Assembly: GCF_035084215.1 (NCBI RefSeq)
Contig: NC_090343.1
Coordinates: 22,444,001 to 22,508,000, forward strand
Reading direction: 5' to 3'
Length of the DNA stretch: 64,000 nt
DNA from: Heptranchias perlo
Lineage: Eukaryota
Part shown: positions 8,310-24,581 of the stretch, one piece after another
Numbering within the stretch: the first letter of the stretch is position 1
Layout: each line of letters begins with the position of its first letter
Translations under genes and position numbers: made by a program
The notes under the pieces: model-generated
Told to the model about the DNA's origin: nothing
Databases searched by the model: none
What the model saw: only the letters and a program-made list of their open reading frames with translations

Positions 8310-8340
8310 TTACTCCTCCCTGGAACTATTAAAACCTTGT
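8310..8340 (-). CDS. PPDPFL: Probable PPDPFL terminal coding exon (R-QGFNSSREE*)
   Basis: ttatccttaaacag|A fits phase 2; followed by AU-rich UTR-like sequence and a minus-strand AATAAA at 7723-7728; no homology support. Confidence 0.4.
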
Positions 8341-8739
8341 CTGTTTAAGGATAACACTATCCAAAGTATTAAATATTTCAGATTCAGGTTTAAGATAATT
8401 GGACAAAAGCATATGACAATATATAAAATTCCCCAAATTATAATGCATGTGACACGTGCTCAGTAAGTCTAGGAAATAAATCTTCATCTGTGGGTACTGG
8501 AAAAAAAAGTGTTTATTTTAACAAAATATTTTATCATTCTTTCTTATCACTGGGCTAATAGTGTTTGCAAAGACTAACATGCAAAGAAAAAGATAAAAGT
8601 TTTACATCATTGTATTAATCTCAAACTCCATTCCAAGAAAACTAGATTAAATGGAAATTATCCCATGGGATCTAGCATACAAACACTTAACACATTCATC
8701 TGAAATTCTTCTCTCTACTATCTTAGCAAAGATGCTAAT

Positions 8740-10170
8740 CTATTTGTTTTAAAAGGGATAAGGTACACATCTGGTAATTACAGGTCAGTTAGTCTAATCC
8801 CATAGATGTAGTTTACTTGGATTTTCAAAAGGTGTTCAATAAATTTTCCCATACAGAACCGATAGGGAAGGTTAAGTCTCATGGCATATATGACAAGATG
8901 TCTGGGAGGATTGGGAATTAGGTTAACAGCAGAGGCTGTTGATAATGCACTGTCTGGGAAGAAAGAACCAGTAATGATGTTCCACAGGGATTTGTTCTGA
9001 AATGCCTGTTCACAGTATTTGTGAATGCTATGGAAAAGGAGTCTGTGGTACTCACAGTAATGATGTTGAATATACTAATAAAGCCATTTGGACAGGTAAG
9101 AAGTAAAAGATTATCTTCAGAGAGACTTGGACCAGTCATGTATAAGAGATATTTCAGGTGGATTTCAATATGGACAAATGTAGGATAATGCATATAGGAA
9201 CAGGTTAGAGTAAATGTTTATAAAATGAAAAGGTCCTATTTTAAACAGGTGGATTAACTCACTGAGATTAACCCTGTTTTGAATATTAGATCTGCATTTG
9301 CTATCCTCCAGTCTTTGGGTACTACTCAAGTATTTATAGATCTCTGAAAAATATGAACCAAGGAATCACTAATTTCCTCCATTAATTTCTTGAGGGTCTA
9401 GAATGTAGAGACTGTAACATAATTTAAAAGGAAATTGAATACTTTTTTTAAAAAAGAGAAGGGTACAAAAGTTACTGGAAAAGGGCAAGCAAATGGCATT
9501 TGAGTCCCATAAAGAAACAATTGAGCACATCCTCCTATAAGAGATAAGATGAAAACATCCTATTTTAAGTAGACCAGTTTAATTGTGCAGCCAGTCAAAC
9601 CCAACCCCATGACATAATTAAGTGTCTCCCTTTAAAGGGGAAACACCACAAAAAATTTTAGGGAGGGGTTGTTTTTCAACTAAAATAAGTAAATTAAATC
9701 AAAATGATAAATACAAGGGATGGGTCTTATTTAGAAATATGCCAATAACATGAAAGGGTCTTATTTTGAAGCTCCACTAACAGAGGCTAAAATGGAAAAG
9801 GATCTGGAAGTGATCATTGATCATAGCCTGAAAGCAGTTACTTAGGATGAAGCTGTATGATATCAAATACATACATCAGTAAATAAGAAAAAATATGACA
9901 AGGTGTTGGTATTTAGGATGATCCCTTTAAACATAAAGTCTATATATATATAATTTTCAATAAAATAAATCAGATTATAGAATGTATTTGAAGAGCATTG
10001 GATTACAAACAGGACAAGTTATGCTGATATTTTACCGATAAAGGGTGAGGCCACTTCTGGAATATGGCATGCAATTTTCGTCATTTTACCTGAAAAAGGA
10101 TACAAATGCATTATAAAGGGACTTGAGAAGAATCACCAGGATGATTGCAGGTCATATGTTATAAAGAAAA
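8740..10170. mobile_element. Highly decayed CR1 fragments
   Basis: NYR.VSL, VYLDFQK.F.K, KDLEV, RPLLEY.. remnants on +; an opposite-strand remnant at about 9270-9400. Confidence 0.55.
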
Positions 10171-10503
10171 GATCAAGTGATTAAACTTATTTTCGACCCC
10201 ACAAAGTTCCAGACACTATAAAGAGCACTACAATCAGTACTCAGAAAGAATAAGTAATTTATTCCCAGAGTAAGTTATATTTCCACTGCCCCCTCCTGCT
10301 CTCTGCTTCTGCCTCTGTCTCCTCTCTCCTCCACCTTCACCCTCCTCCTCCTTCTCCACCCCGCCCCTCCGTCCCCTCTCCTCCCCTCCACCACCTCCTC
10401 CTCCCCCTGAACGAAAGTACTCCCACTAGACTTTCCTTCCAGTGAAGTTCAAGCTACATAAATATTTAAGAAATAACAATCTAATATGAAACACAGAACC
10501 TAC

Positions 10504-21205: not shown

Positions 21206-21682
21206 AGCATTTAAACAAGTATTTACATCTTCTCTAACTTTAATCTTCCTTTCTCTACCGAAAAGTAATTTGTGCCTTAAGAGCTGCTAACTTGTTGATG
21301 AACTTACTGATTTGGTATTCTACCATCTTGCCAAATCTGAATTGCAGATCAATTCATGGTTAGAGGTTATGTCTGCATGTGATTCAGGTCACTTTAAATT
21401 TACTGGTTTCCCAGTTTGCCAAGCATCCAGCAAAATAAAAATGTTCAGTAGACTTGGAAGAATGAAAACCCTAGACAGATGGGCTGCTAAAGTTTAAGTT
21501 TATTACTATATGTTGACAATAGTCTATTAGGCATAAACTTCACAACAATCTCCAATGATTACATGAAAAAAAAACAAGGAATAGTTTTTATTAAAAAAGT
21601 GTAACTACAAACTTAAAGCAGCCTTTATTTTTAGGAACGCCTGAAATTCCTAGCGTTTTCTTCGGGAGCTAAAGCCAAATCA

Positions 21683-21761
21683 TTAAGATGAAGGTTTGTT
21701 GGGCTCACTTGCATGTCGTTTCCTCATCATTTCTTGAGGCAGGACACAGCTTATCTTGCCA
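21683..21761 (-). CDS. PPDPF: PPDPF last coding exon (SGKISCVLPQEMMRKRHASEPNKPSS*)
   Basis: ttctttctag|T; stop TAA 21685-21683; minus-strand AATAAA signals at 21624-21629 and 21587-21592. Confidence 0.85.
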
Positions 21762-24581
21762 CTAGAAAGAAAATAAAATTATTGCAGCAATTTGGTTATA
21801 CACTGGTTTTTGACACATCATACCTTATGCACTAGAGTTGATGTTATGGTCTAAAATGAATATATGAAACTTAGTTTATTACTTGATCATTTGCAATCCA
21901 TCTTCCATTACTATTCTTGATTATATTGTATGGATAGCTCACCTTTCTGTGGACTCTGACAGAGATGTCATTACGGGAGGGTTCTGTGTTTTCCCAAAGA
22001 AAAAGCTGATCCACCATTGGCCTGATGTAGACTTTGGTAATCCTGTAAATAAAAAAAGTTAATTAGTAACTAATGATATCTGCCTACCTGTGTCCTTGAT
22101 ATAGGTCGTGCACAAACAAAATAGGTCCATAAACTTATGCCTATTTTAAGTTACCAGCAAGTCTTGTTGAAAGCTATGCCATTTATAAAAAAAAATTGCT
22201 GTTCATGACAAAAGTGTACATTCAATTCAAAGAATTAAATGCTAGTTTCAAACACCCAAGATTTTCCAGCCTTGATGGCCAGTACATGCAGGTTTCTTAG
22301 TCAAGGTTGGACAATAGCGTACTTCCATAATTTAGGTTCAAAGCAAGTTTAATATGAGCACTGTGCATGTTTCAGGAGTAAATTCCCTACTGTTCAAACA
22401 TTTGGACGTTTCATGATCAAATTCTTGCAGCAAGACTTGCAATAATGCTGAAACCCCATTTGCACTGGATAATTTAACTAGGGATGCTGTATGTCTTGTT
22501 GGCGCATAACTGAATATGCAGGCCCATGAAGACAATCCAATGAAGTTTTACAGCTGCATGCACTTGTCTTTAAATAGAAAAATTTGACCAGTTTTGTAAA
22601 TTCCTGCATCTATAATGTAGACTGCTCATATAAACACACACTCCTGATTGTGGTGGCACTATAATGTCTCTTATCTCCCAGCTTCACAGCCTGAATTGCT
22701 GAGAAACTCCTATGCTCCAACCAACTAATTATCTTGCTTTCAAAATTGCCAAAAAAATCACTACAATTACAAATATTAATTCGAAGTATTATATAAAAAA
22801 AGGGTAGAATGTATGACTAAAATGGGGACTGAATTACATTCTGGTTCAATTATCCACCACTTTATAATCCCGATTCACCTTAAGACTAAACTTCATCTCA
22901 ACTGAGTAACACCATGAGGCCAATTAGTTAATTAAAAGCAATTTTGGAATATTTATATCTTAATTAAACTCAAACTATTTCCAAATAGTTTTGAATTTAA
23001 TTAGATCAGATAGAATTGTTTAAAACACTTGATGAAATGAAACAAACTGCACATCAATAGCTTATCTCACTATATATACACTGCATTATGTGAAGTGCTT
23101 AGTAAAAATCCTCTTACCTGGGTGGTGTGGAATCACTTCTCCCATGTGCTCAGAGCTGCCACAAGAGCTATTACTGGAAGCTGAACCAAGGCGCCCTGGA
23201 ATTGGAGATTTGTACTTTAAGTCAAGAGTTTATCATAAATTTGTTTTTCTGCAAACTATTAAGCTCCTGGAATATAATTCCCCAACATACCTAACAGGTT
23301 TGGAACAGAGGTTTTCAAGTTTGTTTTGCAAATACCAACAATGGGAAGGTACCCTGTCTTGAATTTTGAAAGACAGCATCACCCACTCAAAAAAGGAAAA
23401 TAGTTCATATAGGATACAACATTAGAAATACTGTAATAAAAACAGAAAATGCCAGAAACACTCAGCAGGTTAGGTAGCATCTGTGGGTAGAGATGTGCTA
23501 AGTTAATACAGAACACTAAGAAAAAGTCAGGTTAACAATGTTAGGAGCTCAGCACCCTTCCTCCTCCTCCCTCCTCCCTCCCTGGACCAAGGACCTGAGA
23601 TTGAAAGCCAGTGGTTTAGAATACAGCTTTCAACCTGAACAGAAGAAGATACAGATCTTACTCATTTGTTAGCAAAGTCAATTTCATGTGCAGTATAGTG
23701 TAAATTATAATGTAATTACATGAGTTGAAATCATGCATACATGAAATTCTTCTGTTCACTATTTAACAAAGGTTTTAACCCATTTAGCAGACCATCAAAA
23801 AGGAACAATGACAGGGACGGCCATGATGATCCACCTAGCTATTCCCATTAGCACCTTTGTTAAAACAGCAAAGGAATTTCCAATGAATACACTTAATACA
23901 TTTGTCACCAACATTTTAACCACTAGGTCAGTAGTTTTCAAACTTATATCGTTTACCCCTGCAAAAAACAGACACTTTCAGAAATCTCTTTCTCTAAAAG
24001 GGGAGGTCTGCTAACTAGATGGGGGAAAAAAAGTTATTGCAGAATATACTAGTATAGATACTGAACAGAAATAGCAAGTTAGTTAGTCAATAAATACAGA
24101 AATCTGATTCCTCAGGGACCCCAGTTTGAAACATAATAAAAGTTTACAGATCTGATCCACCTATACATATAGTTGCTGAAACAAAAATTCTTGAGTTACA
24201 AATTTAATCCTGTTGGATATGGATAGGCAGAATTAAAAAGCCAATTGCAGTTAATAGAAATAACCAGTCAAAATATTTTTTAAAAATTACAACACGAATA
24301 CTAGCCTGACAAATTCAGTAAACTGGACTCATTTGAATGAAAAACTGATTGCTATGAATTTTATTACAAGCAAAATAAGTTGTTATTCATCAAGTTTGCA
24401 GCTGCTTCTGTTGGAAGTAGCCCAACTTAACAAGCACATATCCTCCATTTGATTATCTGCAATTCAGTCATTCCCTCCTCCTCCCCCTCAAAAAAAGTAA
24501 CATTGTTTTCCAGCAGAATTACTTACTCCTGTAATAATCATGGGTTGCTGCAAGAGAACCAGTTGATGGAATGGATGCCAT
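21683..24581 (-). CDS. PPDPF: Pancreatic progenitor cell differentiation and proliferation factor, 4 coding exons, 103 aa
   Basis: join(24581-24527,23195-23118,22042-21943,21761-21683), 312 nt, GT-AG introns. Protein: MASIPSTGSLAATHDYYRRRLGSASSNSSCGSSEHMGEVIPHHPGLPKSTSGQWWISFFFGKTQNPPVMTSLSESTESGKISCVLPQEMMRKRHASEPNKPSS. Matches the PPDPF signatures (ATHDYYRRRLGS, GLPK..G.WW.SFFFGK). Confidence 0.93.
21943..22042 (-). CDS. PPDPF: PPDPF coding exon 3 (GLPKSTSGQWWISFFFGK...)
   Basis: tttacag|GA ... GAAAG|gtgagc. Confidence 0.92.
23118..23195 (-). CDS. PPDPF: PPDPF coding exon 2 (RRLGSASSNSSCGSSEHMGEVIPHHP)
   Basis: ttccag|GG ... CCAG|gtaaga; phase 1-1. Confidence 0.93.
24527..24581 (-). CDS. 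PPDPF: PPDPF first coding exon (MASIPSTGSLAATHDYYR)
   Basis: Exon acceptor at 24614 (ctttcag|GTT), donor AGGA|gtaagt. Confidence 0.93.

Follow-up and report, generated by a model that had tools for sequence, protein, structure and literature searches.

Human PPDPF and PPDPFL sit on 20q and 8q, respectively (PPDPFL presumably at band 8q11), which raises the question of whether they are direct twins of a vertebrate genome duplication or the remains of something older. A 64,000-nt stretch of the Heptranchias perlo genome (contig NC_090343.1, positions 22,444,001 to 22,508,000; hereafter the window) bears on this question, as it carries two genes of the family side by side on the minus strand: gene 1, a PPDPF, and gene 2, a gene of PPDPFL type. 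An initial annotation of this DNA had read the pair as the outcome of an ancient tandem duplication before genome duplication, followed by reciprocal loss. Our analysis suggests that gene 2 is probably a third family member, falling into a clade that we call Lb, and not the orthologue of human PPDPFL, whose clade we call La. Human PPDPF and PPDPFL are thus likely to be the survivors of an old side-by-side pair, not direct genome-duplication twins.

Both genes are already annotated in RefSeq, and what is new is the third orthology group together with the history it implies. The family has been called vertebrate-specific, with exdpf and endpf the only names given in the available part of that source (PMC2586380); PPDPFL is not mentioned in the available part of another (PMC12037078). 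Differential loss after the vertebrate genome duplications is known to produce hidden paralogy, which is mentioned in the accessible text of PMC13450315 and is the same kind of history as proposed here for PPDPF and PPDPFL. In the literature on PPDPF, PPDPFL/C8orf22 and ohnologues, subscription papers being outside our coverage, we found neither a description of hidden paralogy for this family nor an account of Lb, of the tandem or of this family history.

Two family genes in tandem

From the stop of gene 1 (21683) to the ATG of gene 2 (13553), the two genes are 8.1 kb apart. They are built alike: in each, the first coding exon contributes 55 coding nt, the intron phases are 1/1/2 and the introns have GT-AG ends. 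This comparison covers the two window genes only. The initial annotation had described this same-strand arrangement at about 8 kb correctly, and the signatures it had named, ATHDYYR for gene 1 and GCLLARNQFYR for gene 2, are present in the first coding exons.

Judged by its sequence, gene 1 is PPDPF and groups with PPDPF of other jawed vertebrates (group F). Its coding parts (24581-24527, 23195-23118, 22042-21943 and 21761-21683) encode a product of 103 aa, identical to P0138 / XP_067856573.1, and all four exon frames match PF15060 at successive profile positions. The protein scores 176 bits on the F profile versus 53 on that of La, and is 90% identical to whale shark PPDPF and 84% to the Callorhinchus protein.

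Gene 2 probably represents a third orthology group

A profile search of 1.84 billion representatives returned 124 matches, and the family falls into three jawed-vertebrate groups, F, La and Lb, plus two lamprey genes. Members of La are P0005 (named chromosome 8 orf 22), Xenopus XP_002934146 and bichir and carpet-shark proteins, along with unnamed proteins that we take to be bird-like or mammalian. Lb consists of gene 2, its counterpart P0002 from a second elasmobranch (frame intact, 77% identical to gene 2), two bichir proteins, and proteins of the elopomorphs Albula and Gymnothorax. Generic RefSeq names of the 'PPDPF-like' kind do not separate Lb from La.

Membership of gene 2 in the family is hard to see exon by exon: among its single exon frames, only exon 1 matches PF15060, weakly and below the cut-off (E 0.02), and no match was found for exons 2 and 3 or for an exon at 8340 proposed earlier. 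The complete product of 80 aa is identical to P0001 / XP_067856571.1 (models XP_067856571-2), and P0001 carries a precomputed PF15060 assignment. With PPDPF (also known as C20orf149, or exdpf in zebrafish) gene 2 shares the intron phases, a first coding part of 55 nt and two blocks of conserved sequence; it differs from PPDPF in its 36% identity to gene 1, the lack of the exon-4 coding part, an Ala in place of Ser7, an intron in the 3' untranslated region (UTR) and an isoform that skips the ATG. With PPDPFL/C8orf22 (La) it shares the N-terminal signature GCLLA..Q.YR, L-like residues at six of six diagnostic columns, a short end soon after the WW block (its length lies within the 80-86 aa of several La proteins) and the same side of the tree. 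Unlike La, it forms part of a clade of its own and lies beside PPDPF, while La occupies another, larger chromosome than PPDPF in bichirs, Xenopus and carpet sharks; La/Lb identity is 41-49%, compared with 36% between F and L. On profiles, gene 2 reaches 78 bits for La (built without gene 2), 67 for a three-sequence profile of bony-fish Lb and 39 for F.

Three trees were built from 44, 32 and 26 hand-picked rows out of about 280 proteins; isoforms and mis-predicted models were left out, as were mammalian copies resembling pseudogenes and the majority of teleost and bird PPDPFs. La and Lb together are split from F and the lamprey genes with support of 100/99, 100/98 and 94/94, and Lb forms one side of a branch with 85/78, 96/98 and 96/82 (starred in two trees). 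Gene 2 falls into Lb, and not La, in all three. The earlier assignment of gene 2 to the PPDPFL type therefore holds at the level of the La+Lb side, where gene 2 is most likely a sister copy and not the orthologue of human PPDPFL. A clade of gene 1 and gene 2 is rejected by the approximately unbiased test (p-AU 3.5e-7 and 1e-33), so that gene 2 is not a recent duplicate of the neighbouring PPDPF, in agreement with the initial annotation. A clade of F and Lb is rejected marginally (p-AU 0.046 and 0.028).

Two further candidates for additional paralogues were discarded. Proteins beginning 'MATHNYYR', considered as a second amniote paralogue, are bird PPDPF. P0152 (XP_067844588.1), a second PPDPF-like protein of Heptranchias encoded on a 92-Mb sequence, was considered as a 2R copy (2R and 1R denoting the second and first vertebrate genome duplications) and rejected: it is 88% identical to gene 1 and frameshifted near its C-terminus, which corresponds to a shifted frame of the last exon of gene 1. 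P0152 thus looks like a young, decaying F copy, possibly a retrocopy. Young PPDPF copies also occur elsewhere in elasmobranch genomes (P0152, P0128, P0133, P0148, P0150).

A tandem pair probably older than the second genome duplication

Outside the window, adjacency was read from accession order and sequence length, not from DNA, and the species of some proteins was inferred from accession blocks and sequence lengths. In Heptranchias, the known neighbours XP_067856571-2 and XP_067856573 have consecutive accessions on one 55.1-Mb sequence. The reedfish shows the same pattern, with Lb (XP_028667536) and F (XP_028667537) consecutive on one 170.8-Mb sequence, which supports a tandem older than the split of sharks and bony fish; its La lies on a 217.7-Mb sequence. 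Polypterus carries Lb and F on one 146.1-Mb sequence and La on another of 208.6 Mb. La and Lb thus occur together, on different chromosomes, in two bichirs, and this further PPDPFL-type gene on another chromosome supports placing the tandem duplication before 2R. In carpet sharks, La lies on 138-144-Mb sequences and PPDPF, in one of them, on a 69.7-Mb sequence; Lb was not seen for them among the proteins found.

Bird PPDPF lies on 12-19-Mb sequences and Xenopus PPDPF on a 52-Mb sequence; the matching of such lengths to the chromosome numbers of quads C and D is an assumption of ours. Quad C (human 20, chicken 20, Xenopus 10) and quad D (human 8, chicken 2, Xenopus 6) form a pair of 2R sisters (PMC8040251), and neither PPDPF nor C8orf22 was found in the available rows of the table in that source. 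Teleost ppdpfa has been placed among dnajc5, tpd52l2, osbpl2 and cables2 (PMC6976628).

We consider it probable that a tandem duplication before 2R produced F and L and that gene 2 is the 2R sister, or ohnologue, of human PPDPFL. A single ancestral gene would have been duplicated in tandem into F (PPDPF) and L, and 2R would then have doubled the F-L pair, with one copy on the chromosome that corresponds to human 20q and the other on that of 8q. From the 8q-type chromosome, F would have disappeared early, leaving La (PPDPFL). On the 20q-type chromosome, F and Lb would both have persisted in some sharks and bichirs, and Lb in elopomorphs too, with patchy loss (or missing annotation) of Lb elsewhere, including tetrapods. 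Of the reciprocal loss proposed initially, one half agrees with the data, as Lb was not seen in tetrapods among the family proteins found; the other half, loss of F beside La, is inferred because in no species was a PPDPF copy seen next to PPDPFL.

The timing relative to 1R depends on the lampreys. They have two family genes on different sequences (P0065/P0142/P0143 and P0067/P0144), one of 100 aa and F-like, the other of 78-80 aa and short like the L-types. Both score higher on F (65 and 50 bits versus 46), their diagnostic columns are mostly F-like (5:0 and 3:1), and no tree places either of them within La+Lb. The tests fail to reject a clade of the lamprey genes alone (p 0.24 and 0.16), and grouping of the second lamprey gene with La+Lb is unsupported (41/95 and 66/58). 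As the lamprey proteins mostly do without L-type residues, we have a weak preference for a tandem event on the jawed-vertebrate stem, between 1R and 2R. A tandem pair older than genome duplication, as first proposed, is therefore likely for 2R only.

Several observations weigh against this history. Monophyly of La is weak (87/85, not recovered, and 52/60 in the three trees), which leaves room for Lb to be nested within La; the test leaves a clade of shark La and shark Lb standing (p 0.099), the La profile gives gene 2 a higher score than the bony-fish Lb profile does, and the alignments, of 63-98 columns, contain long branches that drew a tool warning. The indirect reading of adjacency counts here as well: the Lb and F accessions of Polypterus are 18 apart and not consecutive, and Lb (85.8 Mb) and the one F seen (108.0 Mb) of Gymnothorax lie on different sequences. 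No F gene was seen on a La-bearing chromosome in any species, among the 120 of 174 matches listed, and P0152, the second F copy of Heptranchias, looks young and decaying. Finally, La was not found for Heptranchias itself among the family matches, so that the three-gene state is seen in the two bichirs only.

The main rival, which we regard as improbable, takes PPDPF and PPDPFL as simple 2R homeologues and lets an unequal homeologous exchange or a transposition soon after 2R, before the split of sharks and bony fish, put a PPDPFL copy (Lb) beside PPDPF. It predicts the same tree, (La,Lb) versus F, and spares us the lost 8q-type F copy, none of which was found; moreover, 2R has been described as an allotetraploidy (PMC7269912), so that homeologues would have been diverged from the start. 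On the other hand, a whole gene, introns included, would have to insert no more than 8 kb from its homeologue and point the same way, and the F/L identity falls below that of La and Lb even though the two splits would be near in time and F evolves slowly.

Separate PPDPFL-type duplications in sharks and ray-finned fish, with Lb not one orthology group and a tandem that arose twice or moved, would fit the unrejected shark La + shark Lb clade, the weakness of La and the profile scores of gene 2. We find this very improbable, as Lb is recovered in all three trees and its neighbour is PPDPF in both shark and reedfish by accession order. That gene 2 arose from PPDPF by tandem copying after 2R and turned PPDPFL-like by convergence or gene conversion, with PPDPF and PPDPFL being simple ohnologues, gains from its place beside PPDPF and from the marginal rejection of F+Lb; the six L-like diagnostic columns, the strong La+Lb branch and the La-like shortness of gene 2 make it a highly improbable account. 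A recent duplicate of Heptranchias PPDPF, pseudogene or artefact is scarcely credible: the weak single-exon Pfam matches, upstream ATGs and ATG-skipping isoform would suit it, but the tree tests already refute a recent duplicate, identity to gene 1 is low, the two gene regions share only two repeat-sized blastn matches (26 and 45 nt) and 33 of 55 nt in exon 1, the frame of P0002 is intact, and gene 2 is spliced in two organisms.

If the pre-2R tandem is right, human PPDPF and PPDPFL are older than their 20q and 8q positions suggest, and fish 'PPDPFL' proteins split into two orthology groups. This would correct the family tree of a small vertebrate-specific family that is studied in pancreas, liver and cancer, and it would offer a clean case of hidden paralogy, of the sort that synteny-based ohnologue lists can mis-call. 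We rate the importance as moderate: the genes are annotated, the kind of history is known, and the function of the PPDPFL type is a prediction.

Exons and transcripts of gene 2

Splicing of gene 2 was followed in RNA contigs placed on 7400-14600, from four of eight runs listed (three samples, two studies, two organisms). The runs carry no RNA label on record, and splicing is shown by GT-AG joints and not by labels; contig depths were not used for ranking expression. Canonical ends were found for the joints that leave 13840, 13499, 10677, 10504 (to 10089) and 10036. Two junctions given in the initial annotation are borne out, 13499 to 10778 in three of four runs and 10677 to 10585 in all four, and contigs from two organisms agree with its view that the exons are spliced together. 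Its third junction, from 10504 to 8340, has to be replaced: it is absent among the 15 joints listed for the four runs (76 others aside), three of four runs join 10504 to 10089, and position 8340 lies within a last exon that is continuously covered in four of four. We therefore reject a coding exon at 8340-8310, on the contigs and on its weaker acceptor. Pyrimidine counts alone miss the true acceptor, as eight sites outscore 10089. Since exon 3 joins 10089 and TAA follows at 10088-10086, the product ends at 80 aa.

An intron in the 3' UTR (10036 to 8496) is removed in two of four runs, both from one sample, and in all four, contigs also cover this intron in unspliced form (8497-10035). Nonsense-mediated decay (NMD) follows a rule of 50-55 nt between stop and last junction; in gene 2 this distance is 50 nt, at the edge of the rule. 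Upstream, one contig of run X1 joins the leader donor 13974 to 13575, and the leader seen in this run contains 11 upstream ATGs, one of which overlaps the main start.

The joint from 13840 to 10778, found in three of four runs, skips the ATG exon, and the resulting isoform has no in-frame Met for the protein; it is probably non-coding or regulatory. This isoform is present in both organisms, its contig depth in runs X2 and X6 is similar to that of the coding form, and it is the sole form listed in X5. The output of gene 2 might thus be damped at three points, by the upstream ATGs, by the ATG-skipping isoform and by a stop at the edge of the NMD rule. In the second organism (organism B, run X6), 8 of 264 exon letters differ, compared with 128 of 2512 non-coding letters; the difference is not significant for substitutions (p 0.086), and a p of 0.005 obtained with gap letters included is overstated because such letters are not independent.

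Features of the window, with the basis of each assignment
Feature	Position	Strand	Basis
Gene 1, TATA-like box (26467-26461) and predicted non-coding first exon, donor 26298	26298..26467	-	sequence, CpG profile, donor
Gene 1, first coding exon; ATG 24581, 55 coding nt, phase 1, ATHDYYR motif	24527..24614	-	PF15060 1-19, E 5.8e-7
Gene 1, coding exon 2; 78 nt, phase 1	23118..23195	-	PF15060 20-45
Gene 1, coding exon 3; 100 nt, phase 2, WW block	21943..22042	-	PF15060 44-76
Gene 1, last coding exon to stop	21683..21761	-	PF15060 match
Gene 2, non-coding leader exon; donor 13974, 5' end at or beyond 14600	13974..14600	-	X1 contig
Gene 2, alternative first exon, joined directly to 10778, ATG exon skipped	13840..13955	-	RNA contigs, 3/4 runs
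Gene 2, first coding exon; ATG 13553, 55 coding nt, phase 1, GCLLARNQFYR motif	13499..13575	-	RNA contigs, 3/4 runs
Gene 2, coding exon 2; 102 nt, phase 1	10677..10778	-	sequence, RNA contigs
Gene 2, coding exon 3; 82 nt, phase 2, WW block	10504..10585	-	RNA contigs, 4/4 runs
Gene 2, fourth coding exon; 54 nt, one coding base, then TAA 10088-10086	10036..10089	-	RNA contigs
Gene 2, last exon (3' UTR), extends past 7400; includes the proposed exon 8340-8310	7400..8496	-	RNA contigs
LINE-like retroelement fragment between gene 1 and gene 2	14785..16763	-	ORFs
Intact HEY-family gene, five exons, 285 aa; 48092-48031, 47876-47798, 47685-47602, 46916-46835, 40115-39565	39565..48092	-	Hairy Orange match
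LINE, long interspersed nuclear element; ORF, open reading frame.

Predicted function of gene 2

Mammalian PPDPF binds Raptor via residues 51-64 (PMC8144412), which map to the WW block, and has been reported to bind GTP at Ser6/7 (PMC9839844). In gene 2 the N-terminal block is retained, Ser6 included, and the WW block is present in diverged form, while the C-terminal exon-4 part is gone. On these grounds its product is likely to be a small cytosolic adaptor like PPDPF, which may be of the Raptor/DDB1 or SOS1 adaptor type. The exchange of Ser7 for Ala and the divergence of the WW block speak against such a PPDPF-like function.

Neighbourhood of the pair

A tblastn search with nine family proteins found no third PPDPF-family gene in the window. 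EEF1A2, PTK6 and STMN3, which we take to be 20q13-type neighbours of PPDPF, were not seen within its 64 kb. A CpG island (26001-27000) holds the TATA-like box and predicted first exon of gene 1. Two near-identical tRNA-Glu(CTC) genes, 26693-26766 (+) and 27004-27076 (-), face each other inside the island, about 230 bp upstream of the TATA-like box. On the 3' side of gene 1, AATAAA occurs at 21629, 21592 and 21504.

The HEY-family gene lies upstream of the pair. Its Orange domain is identical to the HEY1 structure 2db7 at 42 of 56 positions (hand count), its YRPW motif is replaced by HFWA, and the HEY exon matched Hairy Orange clusters in the ESM Atlas, none of them named. PPDPFL, for its part, presumably has SNAI2 as a neighbour. 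In a curated table (PMC8040251), human SNAI2 (48.9 Mb) and HEY1 (79.8 Mb) are far apart, so that support from PPDPFL and HEY1 is of chromosome scale and not of gene order. The available rows of the same table list HEY2, HEYL and HEY1 and leave the chromosome-20-type slot empty, which makes the gene in the window a candidate fourth HEY ohnologue. A bolder proposal, which we hold to be unlikely, makes the whole HEY-PPDPF-PPDPFL block ancestral, with a tandem that pre-dates both genome duplications, lamprey genes that descend from F and L, and this neighbour as the missing fourth HEY. Were it true, two of the three genes in the window would be ancient paralogues lost by tetrapods.

Candidate RBPJ-type sites of best consensus (CGTGGGAA) occur upstream of the HEY-like gene at 48177 and 50727, one of the two 85 bp ahead of the ATG of that gene, the other within a CpG-rich patch, and a third lies at 61268. 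Besides the fragment between the two PPDPF-family genes, further LINE-like fragments with long reverse-transcriptase-like frames lie at 28313-32200, 54410-55040 and 63111-63575; the LINE family assignment of all four is our assumption.

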